Of a DNA stretch of 32,000 nt, positions 1,446-16,249 are shown one piece after another. Source of the stretch: Candidatus Saganbacteria bacterium (lineage in GTDB: Bacteria > Margulisbacteria > WOR-1 > JAKLHX01); contig JAPLKZ010000007.1 in the NCBI GenBank assembly GCA_026387835.1, positions 124,187 to 156,186 on the forward strand, read 5' to 3'. Both the position numbers and the translations under genes were made by a program. The notes under the pieces are model-generated. The model was given only the letters and a program-made list of their open reading frames with translations, was not told the DNA's origin and ran no database searches. The first letter of the stretch is position 1; each line of letters starts with the position of its first letter.

Positions 1446-2048
1446 TCACTTCCTGTTTATGAACCACAAGAGAGTAGGGTAGTAAAGCTCCGTCCTTAGG
1501 CCGCCTTTCACGCCGGAATGGCTTCCGCCGGTCTTCACAGCTTCAACAGCTTCTCCGGTCGTATAGCCTTTTTCTTCTATTAAGTATTTCGCGATCACCA
1601 TCCCGGTCCTGTCAGCGCCCCACTTGCAGTGGATATAGACGGGGCCTTTCATAAGCTCTTTTATCTTTTTCCACTCTGATGGCGTAGGTACCTTCGCGAT
1701 GTGCATGGGCACGTGATACCTTTCGATGCCGGCCTTTTCAAGCAAAGAAGAGTATCTTGCCTGGACGGCCCTGGTATTTTCAAGATCTATAAAATGACGA
1801 ATGCCTTTCGACTTGAGATAATTTAATACCGATAAAACAGTCTCATCGCTTGCTTTAAGGTCTATTTCCGGGTCTAAAGGATGGCCTCCCGTGTGGATAT
1901 GGCCGTCGATGACGTGGTAATTGTAAGGCATCGGGCCGCTGCCGCTGACAAGGTTAGAAGGGTATTTCACGCAGACCGATGTCCCCGCAATGGAAGACAC
2001 CGAAAATATTAAGAGTAAAAAACAAACCGCGGCGGATTTTATTTTCAT
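1446..2048 (-). CDS. Secreted protein-tyrosine/dual-specificity phosphatase-like protein
   Basis: N-terminal signal peptide (MKIKSAAVCFLLLIFSVSSIAG) and a CX5R(T) P-loop, HCKWGADRTG. The minus-strand upstream sequence is TGCTAATAT-N6-ATG, with no SD. Confidence 0.7.
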   Translation of the reverse strand: MKIKSAAVCFLLLIFSVSSIAGTSVCVKYPSNLVSGSGPMPYNYHVIDGHIHTGGHPLDPEIDLKASDETVLSVLNYLKSKGIRHFIDLENTRAVQARYSSLLEKAGIERYHVPMHIAKVPTPSEWKKIKELMKGPVYIHCKWGADRTGMVIAKYLIEEKGYTTGEAVEAVKTGGSHSGVKGGLRTELYYPTLLWFINRK

Positions 2049-2084
2049 GGATTAATATTAGCATATTTAACCCTCACCCCTTAA

Positions 2085-2110
2085 CCCCTCTCCCTTGACA
2101 GGGAGAGGGG
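2085..2110. repeat. Perfect 10-bp stem hairpin (CCCCTCTCCC-TTGACA-GGGAGAGGGG), REP-like palindrome
   Basis: The arms at 2085-2094 and 2101-2110 are exact reverse complements. It lies between the divergent phosphatase gene and tRNA-Ile. Confidence 0.6.
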
Positions 2111-2120
2111 GGTAAAACAT

Positions 2121-3635
2121 CTAATGTGTTATAATTTTCATAGAAACAGATGCTGTAATGGGCTCATAGCTCAGCTGGCTAGAGCATGCGACTGATAATC
2201 GCAAGGTCGGTGGTTCAAGTCCACCTGGGCCCATTTTAGTTTCATTGCGAACTCCCGCACATGCGTTTTCTGAAATATTTTTCGGCGAAGGTTTTCTTCT
2301 GCGGCATTTTTTTGGGTGGGGGCAAAAAAATGCCGCAGGAACAGTTTCAGGGGTCTGATTTTCGGCGCAGTTATCAGGATATTTTAATATTACTTCGACG
2401 TTCTCCTTCGAATAAATTATCTTTTCGATGTGCTGTTTTATAATAATTCGTCTTTCAGTCATATCCCTATTAGCTGTCGATCCGGTTATGGTCTCCAGTA
2501 TCTGCCGGACTTTTTCGGAGGTGAACTGCAACGGAAAGGGCCCCGGTTCAAGTCCGCTTGACATGGGTTTAGGCGAATTATTGAGCGTGAAAATCAAACT
2601 GTCGAGATGTTGATTGTTTTTGGCTATATTATCAAGATAATCTATGACAAGCCTGTCCAGACGATCGACGCTGACCTGTCTGACATCACAAAAAGACAGG
2701 TCTCTTTTATTGATGCTTGTGCAACGATAATAAAAATATCTGACTCTCCTTGTATATCTCTTTTTATTTGTGAAGACTTCGCTCATAGTAGATCCGCAGC
2801 CTTTACAATGAAGTAATCCCGGAAATAACGCACAGTGAACGACTCTGCCGTATATTCTCTGTTTATGATGTTTCTGCGCTTCTTCAAACATTTCGGGAGA
2901 CACGATCGCTTCATGCAGGCCTTGATAGATATTTCCTTTGTGAAGGATCATCCCTTTATAGACGACATTTCTCAGCATGTCACATATTACTGTCTTTGAA
3001 AAAACATTGCCTTTTCTGTTGAACATATTTCCGGATTTCAAAGTATTGTAAACAGAATAAACCGATCCGGTGGAAAGATATGTTTCAAATATCTTCTTTA
3101 CTGTTTCGGAATGAACCGGATCGATCACGAGTTTTTTATCTTCCTTTTTATATCCGAACGGAGGCTTTCCTGAACTCCACATACCTTTTTTTGCCATTTC
3201 GGCCTTTTTGTCCCTGATCCTTTCACTTGTCAGCTCTCTTTCAAACTGGCCGAAAGTAAGCATGATATTCCTAAGAAGCCGACCCGACGGAGTGGAAGTG
3301 TCAAATCTCTCTGTTATAGAAATAAAGCTCGCGTTGTGTTTTTCGAGTATTTCTAAAAGATTGTAGAAATCTTTTGGGGATCTTGTGAGCCTGTCTATCT
3401 TGTATGAAATGACGACATCTATCTTGCCGTCCTGAATATCAGATAACATATCATTCAGTCCGGGACGGTCCGTATTCGCTCCGGAGTATCCTTCGTCCGA
3501 ATAAGCCTTGTAGACTTCAAAATCGTTCTGGCTTGATATGAACGATCTGATCTTTATTTGCTGCGCCTCGCAGGAATTGAACTCGACCTCGGCCTGAGAA
3601 TCTGAAGAAACCCTCGTATAGATAGCTGCTCTCAT
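2121..3635 (-). CDS. Large serine recombinase (resolvase catalytic domain, recombinase domain and zinc-ribbon domain)
   Basis: N-terminal MRAAIYTRVSSDSQ (catalytic Ser motif), a DRLTRS motif, and the zinc ribbon HCKGCGST...YYYRC. The last 60 or so codons run through the stem-loop and the antisense of tRNA-Ile, so the functional C-terminus is uncertain. Confidence 0.85.
   Translation of the reverse strand: MRAAIYTRVSSDSQAEVEFNSCEAQQIKIRSFISSQNDFEVYKAYSDEGYSGANTDRPGLNDMLSDIQDGKIDVVISYKIDRLTRSPKDFYNLLEILEKHNASFISITERFDTSTPSGRLLRNIMLTFGQFERELTSERIRDKKAEMAKKGMWSSGKPPFGYKKEDKKLVIDPVHSETVKKIFETYLSTGSVYSVYNTLKSGNMFNRKGNVFSKTVICDMLRNVVYKGMILHKGNIYQGLHEAIVSPEMFEEAQKHHKQRIYGRVVHCALFPGLLHCKGCGSTMSEVFTNKKRYTRRVRYFYYRCTSINKRDLSFCDVRQVSVDRLDRLVIDYLDNIAKNNQHLDSLIFTLNNSPKPMSSGLEPGPFPLQFTSEKVRQILETITGSTANRDMTERRIIIKQHIEKIIYSKENVEVILKYPDNCAENQTPETVPAAFFCPHPKKCRRRKPSPKNISENACAGVRNETKMGPGGLEPPTLRLSVACSSQLSYEPITASVSMKIITH
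2127..2135 (+). promoter_or_regulatory. Extended -10 promoter (TGTTATAAT) for tRNA-Ile
   Basis: TGn plus TATAAT at 2130-2135, about 25 nt upstream of the mature tRNA 5' end. Confidence 0.5.
2160..2233 (+). tRNA. tRNA-Ile (anticodon GAU)
   Basis: Manual cloverleaf: 7-bp acceptor stem GGGCTCA/TGGGCCC, D arm GCTC/GAGC, anticodon loop CTGATAA, T arm GGTGG-TTCAAGT-CCACC, discriminator A. No CCA is encoded. Confidence 0.9.
2234..2937. repeat. Direct repeat copy A (about 700 bp), homologous to 13859-14563
   Basis: Manual alignment gives roughly nine-tenths identity. Homology starts immediately after the tRNA and ends after GATAGATATTTCCT. Confidence 0.85.
2301..2336. other. Conserved perfect 14-bp stem-loop GCGGCATTTTTTTG-GGTGGGGG-CAAAAAAATGCCGC
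   Basis: The arms are exact complements. An identical copy lies at 13926-13961. It sits between the tRNA and the conserved end of the recombinase. There is no trailing U-tract, so it is not a canonical terminator. Confidence 0.6.
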
Positions 3636-3892
3636 ACACTTGTCCTCCTTTCGAATTTATTTAACCCCCTCTGTATCTCCCCCTTGATCCCTCGGCTCGC
3701 TTGCGCTCGCTCGGGACAAGCAGGGGAGCAAATCAAATTCTTCAATTCTGAAATTAATTCTCGGTGAGCATTGGACAAGTGTAGTGATCTAATGTAGCTT
3801 AGAAAACGCGGGCAACGGGACTTCTTAAAGCTATTACAATGTAAAGGGTTTAAACAATGCTCACAACATTGTGAAACTTTTATTTCAGACAT
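3632..3892 (-). CDS. Hypothetical small Cys-rich protein (86 aa); possible recombination accessory factor or non-coding spacer
   Basis: Strong RBS (GGGAGGTGAT) upstream of the ATG, and an ATGA overlap with the recombinase start. The C-terminal half is encoded by a GC-rich repeat-family copy (ACPERAQASRG), which weakens the coding call. Confidence 0.3.
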   Translation of the reverse strand: MSEIKVSQCCEHCLNPLHCNSFKKSRCPRFLSYIRSLHLSNAHRELISELKNLICSPACPERAQASRGIKGEIQRGLNKFERRTSV

Positions 3893-3894
3893 GA

Positions 3895-4443
3895 TTATAT
3901 CACCTCCCTATGAAAAACGAAACAATGACGAGCCAGATCAGGCGGCAGAACGGCCCCTCGACCCTGCTCGGGGTGAACCCCGCCGCCGCAAAGGAACACA
4001 ATGACAGGGACACCCCGGGAAACAGCATGACGGATGGTATAGAGAGAGCCGCGCGAAGGGCCGTGCAGGAAAGCAACGATGACAGAGGACGCGGAAACCA
4101 AACGCCTGTTGCGGCGGAGAAGCGCGGAGACGGCAACCTGACGGGGAGAACCAATGGAAGAAGAGCCCCAAACCACATTGCCGCCTGACCCGATAAACCG
4201 CTCAACCTGCGGACGGACGGAAAAAGGGAAGCCCGCGGCGGAAGACCAAGCCGAATAAACAACGCTACGGGAAGAAGCACCCTGACGAAGCACCGCAGAC
4301 AAAGCAAACTGATCAGCGCCCATGGCACCGCCGGAAGCCACACTAAAACCGCGAGCCAGAAGCAGGGACACGACATGATCAACGAGCGGAGCGAAACGGA
4401 CGGGAAGAGAACGGGAACCAATGACACCAACTGAATAGGACAT
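3895..4443 (-). CDS. DprA/Smf-like (SLOG/DUF2493-like Rossmann) protein, 182 aa, lysine-free
   Basis: The motif order is IGSR...SGGAMGADQFA...RRNRRLV...SRGSLYT...GVPV, as in the DprA Rossmann domain. AAGGAGG RBS 7 nt upstream of the ATG at 4443. The upstream part of the 3895-4515 ORF is discounted. Confidence 0.6.
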   Translation of the reverse strand: MSYSVGVIGSRSLPVRFAPLVDHVVSLLLARGFSVASGGAMGADQFALSAVLRQGASSRSVVYSAWSSAAGFPFSVRPQVERFIGSGGNVVWGSSSIGSPRQVAVSALLRRNRRLVSASSVIVAFLHGPSRGSLYTIRHAVSRGVPVIVFLCGGGVHPEQGRGAVLPPDLARHCFVFHREVI

Positions 4444-4648
4444 ATAACTGCACCTCCTTGAGATCCATGTAGCATTTTCCCGCCGCGCGGCACCCGGAGC
4501 GTAAGCGGAGGGCAAGGCTGCCTGAGCGAACCGAAGGCAGCCGCAGAGGGAGCGGACACGCGCGACGCCGAGCAGCTACGAAGGCGCGGACGAGGCGGAG
4601 CAAGTGGGAGCGACCTTGAAGCGCAAAGGCGGGAAAATGCTACAATGG
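4444..4648 (-). ncRNA. Structured A-poor 5' leader or ncRNA closed by a helix of about 20 bp
   Basis: The arms at 4465-4484 and 4628-4648 are reverse complements (16 contiguous bp plus 4 bp after a one-nt bulge) and enclose 143 nt with internal hairpins such as GGCTGCCT...AGGCAGCC. The 3' arm ends 6 nt before the SD of the DprA-like ORF. Confidence 0.45.
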
Positions 4649-4842
4649 AAAACCCGGAGAAGCACCCCTCATAGAAAGCAAAAATCGTTTGGTTGGGTTT
4701 GAAAAGGCACAGCGAAAAGTGGCATTTATTTGACAGAGGCAATAGAAGTCATAATTGTATTACGAGAGCGGAGATGACGCCTCCGCCGCCTCGCAAGGCT
4801 CGGCGACATCGGCGGAAAGAAACTTATCTTCTAATAAAGATC

Positions 4843-4879
4843 AGGCGGCTTGTCGCTACTTCGCAGCTCCAAGCCGCCT
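4843..4879 (-). terminator. 10-bp stem hairpin (AGGCGGCTTG...CAAGCCGCCT) followed on the minus strand by GATCTTTATT; possible terminator of a short transcript
   Basis: Perfect 10-bp arms with a 17-nt loop that can extend the stem. The U-tract is interrupted. Confidence 0.35.
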
Positions 4880-4907
4880 AACATCATCAATAGTTCAAAG
4901 TAATCCT

Positions 4908-4974
4908 AAAATGGTGCGAGCGGCCCACACCGCTACCATTACTCTGATTATACATAACGCATTCACGGCTGCAT
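4908..4974 (-). promoter_or_regulatory. Inverted-repeat copy A: promoter (-35 ATGCAG, -10 TATAAT) plus leader hairpin, reading leftward
   Basis: 4908-4952 is a 45-bp perfect reverse complement of 13734-13778. -10 at 4947-4952 and -35 at 4969-4974, with a 16-nt spacer. Confidence 0.6.
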
Positions 4975-4981
4975 CTTTATA

Positions 4982-5028
4982 TGGCGGTCGCATACCTTAG
5001 CCCCCAATATAAAAAATTGCGACCGCCA
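4982..5028. other. Hairpin with an 11-bp stem (TGGCGGTCGCA...TGCGACCGCCA) and a 25-nt loop
   Basis: Exact complementary arms at 4982-4992 and 5018-5028, located at the junction between inverted-repeat copy A and the phoB promoter. Confidence 0.4.
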
Positions 5029-5043
5029 ACCAGAAACAATAAT

Positions 5044-5087
5044 TTTACAAGTTCTTAATATAATATTCACATATGGAATGATATAAT
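5044..5087 (+). promoter_or_regulatory. Pho-box-like array (TTTACA, TTAATA, TTCACA at 11-bp phasing) plus extended -10 TGATATAAT
   Basis: Hexamers at 5044, 5055 and 5066. -10 at 5082-5087, 6 nt before the ATG at 5094, with no SD. The 7-bp inverted repeat ATGGAAT/ATTCCAT (5073-5079 and 5086-5092) overlaps the -10. Confidence 0.5.
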
Positions 5088-5093
5088 TCCATT

Positions 5094-5780
5094 ATGAAAA
5101 CCGTCCTGGTAGTAGACGATGAAAAGGACATTGTGGAAGCGATTGAATACAACCTTTCCAAAGAAGGATACAAGGTACATAAAGCTTTTGACGGGGATAC
5201 AGGGCTTTTGACCGCGCAGAACAAGTTGCCTGATATTGTGATACTAGACCTTATGCTGCCCAAAATGGACGGTACCGAAGTTTGCAAAAGGTTGAAGAAA
5301 GATGCCAAAACAGCAAATATACCGGTTATCATGCTTACCGCAAAAAGTGAAGAAACTGACAAGATTGTTGGACTTGAGATAGGGGCAGACGATTACATGA
5401 CCAAACCTTTCAGCATGAGGGAGCTCCTGGCAAGAATAAAAGCTATATTGAAAAGATACGGGACAGGTGTCGAAAAAACGCAGAGTATTTTGAAATATCC
5501 GGGACTTGAAATAGATGTTGACCAGCATATTGTGACGGTGATTGGAAAGAAATTAGAATTAACGGCGAAGGAATTCCTGTTATTAAAATATTTGGCCGAG
5601 AACAAAGAAAGGGTCTACAGCAGGGACAAGCTTCTTGATAGTGTCTGGGGTATCGATGCGGCAATCGAAACGCGTACTGTTGATGTCCATATGAGACGGC
5701 TCAGGGAAAAATTAAAGTCAGCATCGCATTATTTAAAGACGCTCCACGGCGTAGGATATAAATTCTCGGAAAAGAGCTGA
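5094..5780 (+). CDS. phoB: OmpR-family response regulator, PhoB/PhoP-like
   Basis: Receiver domain (VLVVDDE...DLMLPKMDG...KP) and a winged-helix output domain (LTAKEFLLLKYL...VDVHMRRLREKL). Adjacent to a PhoR-like kinase and pst genes. Confidence 0.85.
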   Translation: MKTVLVVDDEKDIVEAIEYNLSKEGYKVHKAFDGDTGLLTAQNKLPDIVILDLMLPKMDGTEVCKRLKKDAKTANIPVIMLTAKSEETDKIVGLEIGADDYMTKPFSMRELLARIKAILKRYGTGVEKTQSILKYPGLEIDVDQHIVTVIGKKLELTAKEFLLLKYLAENKERVYSRDKLLDSVWGIDAAIETRTVDVHMRRLREKLKSASHYLKTLHGVGYKFSEKS

Positions 5781-13778: not shown

Positions 13779-13785
13779 CATTAGT

Positions 13786-13858
13786 GGGGGCATAGTTCAG
13801 CTGGTAGAACGTCTGCTTTGCAAGCAGAAGGTCCGCGGTTCGAGTCCGCGTGCCTCCA
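13786..13858 (+). tRNA. tRNA-Ala (anticodon UGC)
   Basis: Manual cloverleaf: acceptor stem GGGGGCA/TGCCTCC with the G3:U70 Ala identity pair, anticodon loop TTTGCAA, T arm CGCGG-TTCGAGT-CCGCG. No CCA is encoded. Confidence 0.9.
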
Positions 13859-14563
13859 TTTTAGTTTCTTTGCGAACTCCCGCACAAGCGTTTTCTGAAA
13901 TATTTTTCGGCGAAGGTTTTCTTCTGCGGCATTTTTTTGGGTGGGGGCAAAAAAATGCCGCAGGAACAGTTTCAGGGGTTTGATTTTCGGCGCTGTTATC
14001 ATGATATTTCAATATTACTTCGATGTTCTCCTTCGAATAAATTATCTTTTCGATGTGCCGTTTCATAATAATTCGTCTTTCAGTCATGTCCATATTATCT
14101 GCCGGCCCAGTTAAGGTCTCAAGTATCTGCCGGACCTTTTCGGAGGTGAACTGCAATGGAAAGGGCCCCGGTTCAAGTCCGCTTGCCATAGGTTTAGGCG
14201 AATTATTGAGCGTGAAGATCAAACTGTCGAGATGTTGATTGTTTTTGGCTATATTATCAAGATAATCTATGACAAGCCTGTCCAGACGATCAACGCTGAC
14301 CTGCCTGATATCACAAAAAGACAGGTCCCTTTTATTAACGCTTGTGCAACGATAATAAAAATATCTGACTCTCCTTGTATCTCTCTTTTTATTTGTGAAG
14401 ACTTCGCTCATAGTAGATCCGCAGCCTTTACAATGAAGTAATCCCGGAAATAAAGCACAGTGAACGACTCTGCCGTATATTCTCTGTTTGTGATGTTTCT
14501 GCGCCTCTTCAAACATTTCGGGAGACACAACTGGTTCGTGCTGTCCTTGATAGATATTTCCTC
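13859..14563 (-). pseudogene. Truncated large serine recombinase (C-terminal half only); direct repeat copy B
   Basis: The translation aligns residue by residue with the 2121-3635 protein, from GNIYQG..SPEMFEEAQKHHKQRIYGRVVHCALFPGLLHCKGCGSTM onward. The catalytic N-terminal half is absent. The 355-aa ORF in the track is a chimera that extends into the antisense of the TA genes. Confidence 0.85.
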
Positions 14564-14619
14564 TATTGCTCAGGGCGAGCTTCAAAAAAGGCGCTGTTTT
14601 ATGATATAATTCAACCACT

Positions 14620-14850
14620 ATGAAAACAAAACAGGCAAAACAAAAAACGAAACCCGTATATGTGAATGGATTGTCCTTGAAAAGGCCCGCGGTACTGATC
14701 GACGCCAGGGAGTACGAAGGGATGAAGGAAACCCTTGACATATTGATGGAAGACCCCGGTATCTCCAAGGAGATCAGAATAGCCGAAAAAGAACTTAAAA
14801 CGGGTAAAACCGTTTCCTGGGAAAAACTGAAGAATGAACTCAAAGTATGA
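14620..14850 (+). CDS. Type II antitoxin, Phd/YefM-like
   Basis: 76-aa protein with ...VLIDAREYEGMKETLDIL... typical of the Phd/YefM N-domain. It overlaps the downstream toxin gene. TGATATAAT lies 9 nt upstream of the ATG. Confidence 0.65.
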   Translation: MKTKQAKQKTKPVYVNGLSLKRPAVLIDAREYEGMKETLDILMEDPGISKEIRIAEKELKTGKTVSWEKLKNELKV

Positions 14851-15094
14851 ACTTGAGTTTTCAAGCCAGGCCGCTAAATTCCTCAAGAAACTAAAGAACA
14901 AAGAGCTTTTACAGAACATATTGTCAGCGCTGGATATTATACGAAAAGATCCTCTTTCAGGTAAGTTTTTGCAGGGAGATCTAAGAGACTATCATTCTTA
15001 CAGGGTAGGAACGTACAGGGTCATTTACAGGCCGGTTCACGATAAAATGCTTATTTTCATCCTGCGCATCTCTCACAGAAAAGAAAGCTATTGA
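14834..15094 (+). CDS. Type II toxin, RelE/ParE family
   Basis: 86 aa with the C-terminal signature YRVGTYRVIYRPVHDKMLIFILRISHRKESY. Overlaps the antitoxin by 17 nt. Confidence 0.75.
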   Translation: MNSKYELEFSSQAAKFLKKLKNKELLQNILSALDIIRKDPLSGKFLQGDLRDYHSYRVGTYRVIYRPVHDKMLIFILRISHRKESY

Positions 15095-15284: not shown

Positions 15285-15302
15285 CCATAGTAAGGAGTGA
15301 CA

Positions 15303-15851
15303 ATGTTAAACTTAAGGTCCGGCATCAAGAGCAAAGCGCTGAATTATTTCTTTCTGAACGAAGACAAAAGCATATACATAAATGAGCTTGCGCGCCTGAT
15401 CGGCGCTGACCCAATGAACCTTTACAGGTCACTGATAAAGCTTGAGGAGGAAGGACTTTTAAAAAGCGAATTCAGGGGCAAGGAGCGGTATTTTTCGTCT
15501 AACAAAAAGAATCCGTTATACAAAAACTACAAGGAGATATTCCTCAAGACCCATGGGTTTGAAGCGATGCTCAAGGAAGCATTAGAGAAAGTCAAAGGAC
15601 TGGAAGAAGCCATTATCTACGGATCATACGTGGCAGGCGGTTTTGACAGTTACAGCGATATTGATATTATGGCCGTGGGAAGTCATTCCGCAATAGAACT
15701 CAACAGGGCACTTTCTGTTCTTCAGAAAGAGACAGGAAGAGAGCTCAATGCGGTAAGTTATGGCAGGGCTGACTATGAAAAGCGCAAAAAAAAGAAAGAC
15801 CCCTTCATTTGCGGAGTCCTTAAGAATAAAAAGATAAAGATAATATGTTGA
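15303..15851 (+). CDS. Winged-HTH plus minimal nucleotidyltransferase (MNT-type antitoxin-like) protein
   Basis: NTase motif GSYVAGGFDSYSDIDIMAVG and an N-terminal wHTH-like region (INELARLIGADPMNLYRSLIKLEEEGLL). The ATG at 15303 is preferred over the GTG at 15297 because of the spacing to the AAGGAG RBS. Confidence 0.7.
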   Translation: MLNLRSGIKSKALNYFFLNEDKSIYINELARLIGADPMNLYRSLIKLEEEGLLKSEFRGKERYFSSNKKNPLYKNYKEIFLKTHGFEAMLKEALEKVKGLEEAIIYGSYVAGGFDSYSDIDIMAVGSHSAIELNRALSVLQKETGRELNAVSYGRADYEKRKKKKDPFICGVLKNKKIKIIC

Positions 15852-16249
15852 AATTCGAGGCAAAACACTTTAAGATATTCAACTTTACGCCTGAACAGGT
15901 AGAGGCGAACATGAAGAATGCCGAAAAGACGCTTGAAATAGCAGGGAAAGACAGGATAAGTGAGGTCATCTTCGACTATTCTTACAAGGCAATAATCAAA
16001 GCGGGGATAGCTCTTCTGAGCAAAAATAATTGCAAAGTCAAAAGCGGTTCCGGACATCACATCAAGGTCATAGAAGCACTGGCAAAAATACTGGATGATA
16101 AAACGATAGGGCAGGACGCGGATGTTATGAGGGGAAAAAGGAACCTGGACTTCTACTGCGGCGGTATCGAGGTCTCGGAAAAGGAAGCTGCCGAATACCT
16201 GGCCTTTGCGAAAAAGATAGTACTTGCGGCCAGAAAGATCATTGGTTAA
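15845..16249 (+). CDS. HEPN-domain protein (putative toxin partner of the MNT protein)
   Basis: 134-aa all-helical protein with the R(x)KRNxxxY-type motif (MRGKRNLDFY). 7-nt overlap with the NTase gene, as in HEPN/MNT operons. Confidence 0.55.
   Translation: MLKFEAKHFKIFNFTPEQVEANMKNAEKTLEIAGKDRISEVIFDYSYKAIIKAGIALLSKNNCKVKSGSGHHIKVIEALAKILDDKTIGQDADVMRGKRNLDFYCGGIEVSEKEAAEYLAFAKKIVLAARKIIG

Follow-up and report, generated by a model that had tools for sequence, protein, structure and literature searches.

Proteins of the DprA/Smf family and their relatives ShosA and PsyrA share a Rossmann/SLOG fold and conserved motifs for the binding of single-stranded DNA (ssDNA), and to our knowledge avoidance of adenine has been reported for none of the three families. 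Large-serine-recombinase elements carry a recombinase with Resolvase, Recombinase and Zn-ribbon domains and are inserted at the 3′ ends of tRNA genes; a DprA-like first gene is not, as far as we know, a part of such elements. The mobile module described here has features of both. It lies in a 32,000-nt stretch of DNA from a Candidatus Saganbacteria bacterium (contig JAPLKZ010000007.1, positions 124,187 to 156,186; this whole stretch is called the window and is numbered from its first letter), and its first gene encodes a standalone DprA-type domain from a coding strand that is severely depleted in adenine (A). In related units on plasmids this nucleotide is nearly excluded. No parallel is known to us for a natural expression unit from which one nucleotide is nearly excluded. 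A preliminary description of the window, made from its letters, had likewise named no precedent, and comparison with the literature turned up none: for adenine-free, adenine-poor or lysine-free bacterial genes nothing beyond engineered ACA-less genes was found, with incomplete coverage of journals.

Among the described systems, the same principle is seen in messages that lack the site of a toxin and therefore persist, such as the ACA-less mRNAs of MazF single-protein production and the ghoT message, which escapes MqsR through the absence of GCU. In those cases, however, a motif of three nucleotides is removed, mostly by synonymous changes, whereas here a whole nucleotide is depleted from coding and non-coding sequence, the protein is rebuilt from about 10–12 amino acids, and ACA persists. 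Diversity-generating retroelements (DGRs) also single out adenine and affect one strand, as in the adenine-poor gene, but in our case A gives way to T at synonymous sites instead of to any base, and the region is conserved rather than diversified. Frpo and leading-region genes have in common with the present units their location on mobile elements, a predicted ssDNA-binding function and co-oriented blocks of DUF932, Gp157 and KorA genes. A study of the composition of leading regions described effects on GC content, motifs and codon adaptation, not the exclusion of a nucleotide (bioRxiv 10.1101/2025.04.03.647016).

The adenine-poor gene and its leader comprise the following features:

3895-4443, minus strand: DprA-like coding sequence, 182 amino acids plus stop codon; based on base counts, Pfam, an AlphaFold2 model, the composition of homologues and dN/dS (the ratio of nonsynonymous to synonymous substitution rates)

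4451-4459, minus strand: Shine-Dalgarno sequence AAGGAGGTG, 7 nt 5′ of the ATG, read from the sequence

4465-4484 (perfect part 4468-4484), minus strand: 3′ arm of the leader helix; inverted repeat, 17 nt, 100% complementary

4485-4627, minus strand: interior of the leader, C-rich (42% C), with 7 A in 143 nt; its length and sequence differ between loci

4628-4648 (perfect part 4628-4644), minus strand: 5′ arm of the leader helix, from the inverted repeat, RNAfold and covariation

Exact counting of the 549-nt open reading frame (ORF) yielded 44 A (8.0%), 162 C, 158 G and 185 T. The A residues were distributed over the first, second and third codon positions as 16, 23 and 5 of 183, and the five at the third position include that of the TAA stop codon, leaving four sense codons that end in A. 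Hand counts in the preliminary description (about 42 A, four codons ending in A and 7 A in the leader interior) were close to the exact values of 44, 4 and 7. The whole interval 3895-4660 contains 8.6% A, and the GC content of the adenine-poor region is 0.60, against 0.44 in its surroundings. All 549-nt stretches in the rest of the window contain at least 16% of every base on either strand, and the abrupt shift in composition noted in the preliminary description is confirmed. On the plus strand, the minima outside the adenine-poor region were 16.2% for T and 17.7% for A, with means of 26% and 29% and standard deviations of 4–5%. In the window together with about 363 kb of related loci, 240-nt stretches with less than 10% A or T occurred solely in the DprA-like gene and its homologues.

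The encoded protein contains no lysine among its 182 residues, in agreement with the preliminary description, and has one Thr, two Asn, 27 Ser, 27 Val, 21 Gly and 18 Arg; its most frequent residues are Ser, Val, Gly, Arg, Ala and Leu. The final codons of the gene, AGG GAG GTG ATA TAA, also constitute the Shine-Dalgarno sequence of the next gene, a Cys-rich ORF, so that the C-terminus of the DprA-like protein (..K/R-E-V-I-stop) corresponds to the embedded sequence AAGGAGGTGATATAA.

The composition of this gene is a property of its family. In total, more than 200 homologue clusters share it. Among the matches listed, all 120 homologues (63–80% identical, and mostly from metagenome-assembled genomes of Margulisbacteria, Saganbacteria and WOR-1) contain 0–4 lysines and very few Thr, Asn, Glu and Asp residues. 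The coding strands of the homologues contain 4.7–13% A, compared with 26–34% in their flanks or genomes; adenine poverty and lysine scarcity are thus held in common, and ordinary content was not what the comparison revealed. In 23 loci from Margulisbacteria the strong drop in A sets in with the start codon and lasts up to the Shine-Dalgarno sequence of the gene that follows. Codons ending in A are scarce in these loci (GAA 1/42, CAA 2/149, CGA 1/315 and GGA 10/466), while the glutamine codon CAG occurs 147 times in the 23 genes and ACA is still present in 33 copies. In the alignment of the 23 sequences, A was never seen in 355 of 576 nucleotide columns. Eleven columns are nearly always A, and these belong to the ATG, Asp44 (of the GAD motif), Asn112, Thr136, His139, Asp169 and the Shine-Dalgarno sequence of the next gene. 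No avoided motif was recognised around the residual A's; the search returned solely an enrichment of CAG (Gln codons) and a depletion of GA, both of which are confounded by amino-acid usage.

Four-fold degenerate sites were compared between two genes of 13 operons:

DprA-like gene: A 4.1%, T 53%, C 26%, G 17%

Recombinase gene: A 23.8%, T 26.8%, C 28.5%, G 21%

At these sites T takes the place of A, and the GC content of third codon positions is essentially unchanged. The contrast between 4% A in the DprA-like gene and 24% in the recombinase, the next-but-one gene of the operon, supports the earlier suggestion of a pressure at the level of the nucleotide. The dN/dS values of 0.09–0.36 (with dS up to about 1.2) and the fact that third codon positions vary most indicate that the annotated frame is functional. 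Since dS reaches about 1 while A remains low, synonymous sites have been substituted repeatedly without a return of A. The depletion is therefore a selected, nucleotide-level, family-wide trait, not a mutational or imported one, and A has been removed from the DprA-like transcript by long-standing selection on the nucleic acid, not on the protein. Selection for additional RNA structure within the coding sequence was considered and rejected (minimum free energy per nucleotide of −0.343, versus −0.342±0.013 for mononucleotide shuffles).

All four of the long minus-strand ORFs in alternative frames that had been listed for this region do exist. The overlapping or frameshifted products proposed for them were rejected, as the alternative frames contain 0–8 stop codons in the homologues and third positions are the most variable ones; the open frames are a by-product of the missing A. 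In two related loci, the DprA-like copies themselves are frameshifted (L023 6001-6533 and L032 6001-6527, each matched by tblastn in two frames) and still contain about 10% A; from their sequences these copies look like recent pseudogenes. At a greater distance, the DprA-like genes of L027-L031 (Marinamargulisbacteria) and the relatives P0123, P0126 and P0141 have 18–26% A and 7–12% Lys, and those of L027-L031 still precede a serine recombinase. The near-normal A content of these distant relatives implies that the trait was gained or intensified within the element family.

The trait is carried to its extreme on plasmids. A profile search of 1.84 billion representatives recovered 947 relatives at E<=1e-3, which range from proteins of normal composition (5–12% Lys) to those in which F, L, S, P, V, A, G, R, C and W, the ten amino acids with codons free of A, make up 94–99% of the residues. 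In one relative of 204 amino acids (P0200), the exceptions to this ten-letter alphabet are one Met and one Asp. The extreme units contain 1–4% A and are located on plasmids of Nitrosococcus and methanotrophs and on metagenomic contigs with plasmid-type genes; in absolute terms, 13 A were counted in 897 nt of L033, 16 in 1157 nt of L042 and 21 in 927 nt of L040. The adenine-free zone of L040 extends from directly after a TATAAT through the 5′ untranslated region (UTR), two ORFs and the hairpin of an intrinsic terminator, with a single A (in GGAG) between TATAAT and the GTG start codon and none in the terminator hairpin. The zones of L042 and L054 also begin just past a −10-like box, in promoters that were read by eye and were not called by a strict scan, and in all three units a G-rich sequence follows the box immediately. 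Frequent ribosome-binding sites in the adenine-poor units are GGGGG and GGTG, and translation often starts at GTG or TTG.

Cultured or isolated hosts of such plasmids include Nitrosococcus oceani, N. halophilus, N. watsonii, Methylobacter, Methylocaldum and Methylomagnum, and the plasmid-type neighbours of the units are ParA, Rep3, KorA, KfrA, DUF932, Gp157 and YdjM. The adenine-poor zone of N. oceani plasmid A (NC_007483.1, about 2800-4300, minus strand) measures about 1.5 kb, is the sole such zone in 40 kb and ends sharply at the stop codon; on the Nitrosococcus plasmids in general the transition is sharp at the 3′ end and more gradual at the 5′ end. A hicA-hicB pair of normal composition is located 24 nt past the stop codon of the adenine-free unit of N. 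oceani plasmid A, in the same orientation (L037 7643-8249, or NC_007483.1 2201-2807), and in N. halophilus hicB alone is annotated at the corresponding place. The family always occurs in mobile DNA, next to plasmid-type genes or to a serine recombinase located at a tRNA gene. An origin from phages was considered and rejected: IMG/VR contained distant relatives only (24–42% identity), and INPHARED gave no match.

On the Nitrosococcus and methanotroph plasmids, a second adenine-poor gene lies directly 5′ of the DprA-like gene. It encodes a protein of about 124 amino acids and was located at the following positions:

L037 6635-7001

L055 3877-4260

L057 7286-7699

Its sequence has the form MAGFVSV..RGAGVVARP...SPVFAACGLPVP..VKVALP. 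This second family comprises 142 clusters, in which on average 95% of the residues have A-free codons; it is unrelated to the DprA-like family and has no match in Pfam, PHROGs or NCBIfam. The presence of a second protein family in the adenine-free units indicates a constraint on the unit as such rather than on a single protein. Avoidance of lysine at the protein level was accordingly rejected, given that synonymous sites, UTRs and terminators are adenine-free as well and the unrelated second family shares the trait; by the same observations, the earlier suggestion that evasion of lysine-directed protein modification is the driver is not supported.

The leader upstream of the window's DprA-like gene is closed by a helix. 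The preliminary description had placed it at about 20 bp, ending 6 nt before the Shine-Dalgarno sequence. It proved to be perfect over 17 bp, which RNAfold lengthens by a few pairs beyond a bulge, and it ends 5–8 nt 5′ of the Shine-Dalgarno sequence, which is itself kept as GGAGGTG in 24 homologous loci. The helix is kept in the five closest loci that have it, and compensatory double changes were found at five of its pairs (6 loci). Its arms read TTTTCCCGCC/GGCGGGAAAA in the window, TTTCCCCGC/GCGGGGAAA in L001 and CACTTTTCTGCC/GGCAGAAAAGTG in L009. The covariation score was reached by none of 500 shuffles and by no slid control, so that the helix has support from covariation. Across all 23 Margulisbacteria loci the leader contains 17–20% A and is thus mildly depleted. 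No Rfam family matched the leader.

The assignment of the 182-residue protein to the DprA/SLOG fold, which the preliminary description had proposed, was confirmed by both a Pfam search and structure prediction. PF02481 (DNA_processg_A) aligned with residues 4-149 at 45.2 bits (cut-off 29.6, E=8.3e-12). An AlphaFold2 model built with 22 homologues reached a pLDDT of 91 and a pTM of 0.86, and Foldseek matched it to the structures 8zva, 3maj, 4ljk and 3uqz with a probability of 1.00 and TM-scores of 0.63–0.74. The top solved structures were ShosA and DprA of three species (TM-score 0.70–0.74), and the lower matches were the SLOG relatives MoCo carrier, YpsA and LOG. Profile matches in the PDB were also to ShosA and DprA (E about 1e-4). 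In PADLOC, ShosA (E=1.7e-9) and PsyrA (E=1.3e-6) were matched with alignments confined to the shared Rossmann core, and the TIGR00732 equivalog scored 37.2 bits against a cut-off of 191, with the core domain alone aligning.

The residues that are invariant across the homologues (GSR, G..G.D, RN/SR, GS) are DprA motifs, and binding of ssDNA and loading of RecA are predicted from the conserved GSR, SGGAxGAD, RNR and SRGS, the ssDNA-binding motifs of DprA, all of which are retained. Unlike DprA, proteins of the window type consist of the core domain only (172–190 aa) and carry neither a SAM nor a C-terminal winged-helix domain. Unlike ShosTA and PsyrTA, they have no adjoining toxin of the phosphoribosyltransferase type, their neighbours being the 86-residue Cys-rich ORF and the serine recombinase. 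The protein is therefore a standalone DprA-type Rossmann/SLOG domain and represents a new, truncated branch of the DprA family.

In the window, the DprA-like gene, the Cys-rich ORF and a large serine recombinase follow one another on the same strand in a module that adjoins a tRNA gene. Host-like genes start again at about 5094, which sets the size of the element at about 2.8 kb. Its further features are:

3632-3892, minus strand: Cys-rich ORF, 86 amino acids, translationally coupled to the DprA-like gene, with normal A content

2121-3635, minus strand: large serine recombinase (Resolvase, Recombinase and Zn_ribbon_recom), with a normal A content of 33%

2159-2234, plus strand: tRNA-Ile(GAU), whose 3′ end adjoins the element and is its right boundary

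4700-4896, no strand assigned: homologue of the left inverted repeat, from BLASTN, a repeat search and alignment, with a terminator-like hairpin at 4843-4879

4724-4752, minus strand: putative sigma-70-type promoter ATGACT-17-ATAAAT, read from the sequence; TTGACT-17-ATAAAT in relatives

4915-5029, minus strand: conserved left-end segment of about 110 nt that contains TATAAT and ends in ...GCACCA, in register with the tRNA 3′ CCA

The Cys-rich ORF has no family match in Pfam, PADLOC, PHROG or NCBIfam. The recombinase domains were recognised with E-values of 1.4e-39 (Resolvase), 2.7e-14 (Recombinase) and 1.5e-9 (Zn_ribbon_recom); the recombinase ORF overlaps at its start the stop codon of the Cys-rich ORF and, further on, covers the tRNA-Ile gene in antisense orientation. 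Of the 36 genome loci that were recovered, about 20 keep the order of DprA-like gene, optional Cys-rich ORF and recombinase. Some related loci contain 2.5–4.5 kb of cargo within the module, and several genomes carry two or three copies. In 14 relatives a tRNA gene (Ile, Met, Ala, Lys, Leu, Tyr or Val) occupies the equivalent place, and in every relative that could be checked its 3′ end adjoins either the recombinase end or the DprA end of the module.

The module in the relatives is flanked by inverted repeats of 162–212 nt that are 98–100% identical within a locus (L001 5494-5655/7998-8159; L009 5426-5587/7967-8128; L020 5456-5667/7950-8161). The outer part of each repeat is a terminator-like hairpin, and the inner part comprises TTGACT-17-ATAAAT together with codons for the C-terminus of the recombinase on the opposite strand. 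This promoter-like motif is present at the equivalent place in L001, L009 and L019, with inverted copies at the recombinase end. The putative promoter of the window lies in the inner part of the left repeat homologue, and a strict consensus scan did not call it. The right repeat arm of the window is degenerate (2231-2253 versus 4892-4914, 74%). The left-end segment at 4915-5029 is common to L001, L009 and L020 and has no match in Rfam; it may represent a tRNA-like remnant, an attachment half-site or a promoter. In most loci the tRNA gene is on the recombinase side, and in L002 and L014 it is on the DprA side, the segment of about 110 nt being always at the opposite end. The occurrence of the tRNA at opposite ends in different genomes suggests that the segment of about 2.3 kb between the repeats inverts. 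Taken together, the element is a variant of the large-serine-recombinase elements at tRNA genes, with which it shares the domains of the recombinase and insertion at the tRNA 3′ end. It differs from them in its very small size, in that the flanks of its relatives are inverted (not direct) repeats that include the 3′ end of the recombinase, and in its varying orientation relative to the tRNA.

The window also contains the recombinase in a second, truncated copy (13797-14864, minus strand), which adjoins a tRNA-Ala gene (13785-13859, plus strand). This copy encodes the C-terminal approximately 230 residues, is near-identical to the first copy and has no DprA-like gene alongside. Beside it, on the plus strand, are a pair of Phd/YefM-like and RelE/ParE-like genes (14620-15094) and a pair encoding an MNT-like nucleotidyltransferase and a HEPN-like protein (15297-16249), all of these labels being judged from the sequence alone. 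Within the recombinase ORF of the module, the sequence AAGGGCCCCGGTTCAAGTCCGCTTG at 2536-2560 (plus strand) resembles a T-arm, with 76% identity to that of tRNA-Ile, and may have been left behind by a former attachment site. In the 3′ part of the recombinase ORF, just beyond the tRNA, a perfect hairpin of 16 bp (2299-2338) is flanked on either side by T-runs, in the shape of a bidirectional terminator; by its presence, the last approximately 100 recombinase codons may not be genuine coding sequence.

What selects against adenine may be sought among agents that impose a cost on each A of the transcript. Such a cost points to an RNA cutter or modifier that acts at A, to a limit on ATP for RNA synthesis, or to an agent that acts on T in the template. 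The reading that we favour, with a probability of roughly 0.35, is that the A-free mRNA escapes an adenine-directed attack on RNA. The element would have to make its DprA-like protein in cells in which RNA faces such an attack, so that each A in the message would be a liability. Endoribonuclease toxins of toxin-antitoxin or abortive-infection systems, CRISPR-associated RNases and adenine-modifying enzymes would be candidate attackers. An A-free message would stay intact and translatable while ordinary mRNAs are destroyed, and the first cistron would outlive the downstream cistrons of the same operon. Most of the characterised mRNA-interferase motifs contain A, including the ACA of MazF, the A-rich codons of HigB and YafQ and the AAAU of ToxN, and Csx1 cuts after A. 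This reading is favoured because it explains both the coding and the non-coding depletion, because the genomes and plasmids concerned are rich in RNase toxins (hicAB downstream in one case, RelE-like and HEPN genes in the window), and because the principle has been proven for engineered ACA-less messages, which are still translated while MazF degrades other messages (PMC9102682).

Several points weigh against evasion of RNA attack. The RelE and HEPN toxins that the preliminary description had called nearby are indeed both in the window, at 14.6–16.2 kb, but they lie about 10 kb away beside the truncated recombinase, and the 2.8-kb element has no linked A-specific RNase. The downstream cistrons are unprotected, including the recombinase that the element needs, and there is no obvious reason why the DprA-like protein should be the product in need of protection. 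In Margulisbacteria the depletion is strongest in the coding sequence, with 17–20% A in the leader, which also fits a cause at the level of translation. The persistence of ACA would require that the target be A as such, not a motif. Furthermore, A-free RNA and a T-free template strand are not distinguished by these data.

A T-free template might serve expression from ssDNA, the DprA-like gene being the first to be transcribed from an entering or mobilised strand and its ssDNA-binding product then protecting or processing that strand; we regard both parts of this account as unlikely. Its product is, by its motifs, a predicted ssDNA-binding DprA domain, the untranslated parts of the unit are also depleted in A, and the plasmid versions sit among DUF932, Gp157, KorA and KfrA genes, neighbours that resemble establishment or leading regions. 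In single-stranded form, the inverted repeats of 162–212 nt in Margulisbacteria, with their TTGACT-17-ATAAAT, would pair into a duplex stem that holds the promoter and faces the DprA-like gene, and for the window the long flanking repeats of its relatives could serve as an Frpo-like promoter hairpin. Conversely, no unusual ssDNA hairpin of the Frpo type was detected at the promoters of L040 (z=-0.46) and L042 (z=-0.38), the two plasmid units covered by the comparison with shuffles; the Nitrosococcus and methanotroph plasmids are typed as non-mobilizable, no relaxase or oriT was identified, the right repeat arm of the window is degenerate, and the same-strand genes further downstream do contain T. 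The supposed biophysical advantage, namely that a T-free template would resist thymine-directed ssDNA damage (ADP-ribosylation by DarT, pyrimidine dimers), fold less and bind SSB or RecA poorly, is conjectural. Distinctly unlikely, in our estimate, is an escape at the level of translation, in which A-free codons would avoid tRNAs with U in the anticodon as well as A-rich codons in the A site. It seems just as doubtful that the protein would thereby still be made under anticodon nucleases of the PrrC, PARIS or Cas13a type or under the ribosome-dependent RelE, HigB and YafQ. The extent of the depletion in the 23 Margulisbacteria loci, from the start codon to the C-terminal Shine-Dalgarno sequence, the near-absence of codons ending in A, the identity of the residues lost (Lys, Asn, Thr, Glu and Asp) and the RelE-like gene within the window would agree with it. 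No tRNA or ribosome mechanism explains, however, why the 5′ UTR, the ribosome-binding site (GGGGG or GGTG) and the terminator of the extreme units are also A-free; CAG, moreover, is used freely although its tRNA has U35, and no such adaptation is seen in the element's other genes.

An improbable alternative is that the A-free transcript could be elongated when the ATP pool has been destroyed or converted, as by RADAR, Cad1, Detocs or enzymes of the ATP-nucleosidase type, or during energy collapse. This would account for the apparent cost of each A over the whole unit, UTR and terminator included, and for the G-rich transcription starts just after the −10-like boxes of L040, L042 and L054, but translation itself needs ATP for aminoacylation, as do the RecA-type partners of DprA; promoter melting elements and a few essential codons keep their A, and the downstream cistrons on the window's mRNA are A-rich. 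The SLOG superfamily includes adenine-nucleotide N-glycosidases (LOG and PpnN), and the product or a partner might act on adenines, such that its own message or non-template strand must lack the substrate. LOG-type folds are among the weaker matches of the model, and the trait follows the protein family across very different hosts. Such self-immunity is nonetheless very improbable: the conserved motifs are those of an ssDNA-binding DprA, not the catalytic motif of LOG, the neighbouring cistrons, like the remainder of the element, are A-rich and would come under attack, and family members of normal composition exist. Least of all do we credit a mutational origin, by DGR-like or deaminase hypermutation of adenine or by ssDNA damage to one strand, or a recent import from a high-GC donor, both raised in the preliminary description; this origin is largely refuted. 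The sharp 3′ and graded 5′ edges on the Nitrosococcus plasmids and the GC content of 0.60 against 0.44 would be in keeping with it. The replacement of A by T, rather than by G or any base, with GC at third positions essentially unchanged and T at 53% of four-fold sites, means that neither a high-GC donor nor A-to-G deamination nor A-to-N mutagenesis of the DGR type can be the cause; C and G at these sites are slightly lower than in the recombinase. C deaminates faster than A, yet C is not depleted. The trait spans more than 200 clusters in several phyla and persists to dS of about 1 under purifying selection, and its edges match gene or transcript boundaries. No direct repeat of the adenine-poor segment that could act as a template repeat/variable repeat pair was found within 1900-5200, and none of the three genes of the element encodes a reverse transcriptase, an enzyme for which no dedicated search was made. 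The probability that remains is left to causes not yet thought of.

Evasion of adenine-directed RNA attack thus being the preferred reading, what is new here is a natural unit nearly without one nucleotide, with proteins of about ten amino acids, in several bacterial lineages. It would show that one gene can stay nearly free of one base over long evolutionary times and that a folded, conserved DNA-binding domain can be built in nature from about ten amino acids, which bears on questions of reduced alphabets and the early genetic code. As an A-free unit is carried by plasmid A of the cultured Nitrosococcus oceani ATCC 19707 and by plasmids from further Nitrosococcus and methanotroph strains or species, the question is directly testable. 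The composition signature offers a simple handle for finding further such units, the presumed pseudogenes of L023 and L032 could gauge the speed with which A returns once selection is lost, and A-free coding could guide the design of messages meant to withstand RNase-based shut-off. A strong selective agent is implied, which counts single adenines in RNA or thymines in the template and probably belongs to the conflict of mobile elements with host defences. It is possible, and we put it forward tentatively, that the exclusion of one nucleotide from a whole transcript is a general and previously unrecognised strategy of mobile elements under A- or T-directed attack, a "stealth" or "armoured" message or a T-free template, in which the proteins are confined to some ten kinds of amino acid (F, L, S, P, V, A, G, R, C and W, plus one essential Asp) and the DprA-like protein and the 124-residue family would together form an establishment or rescue module.

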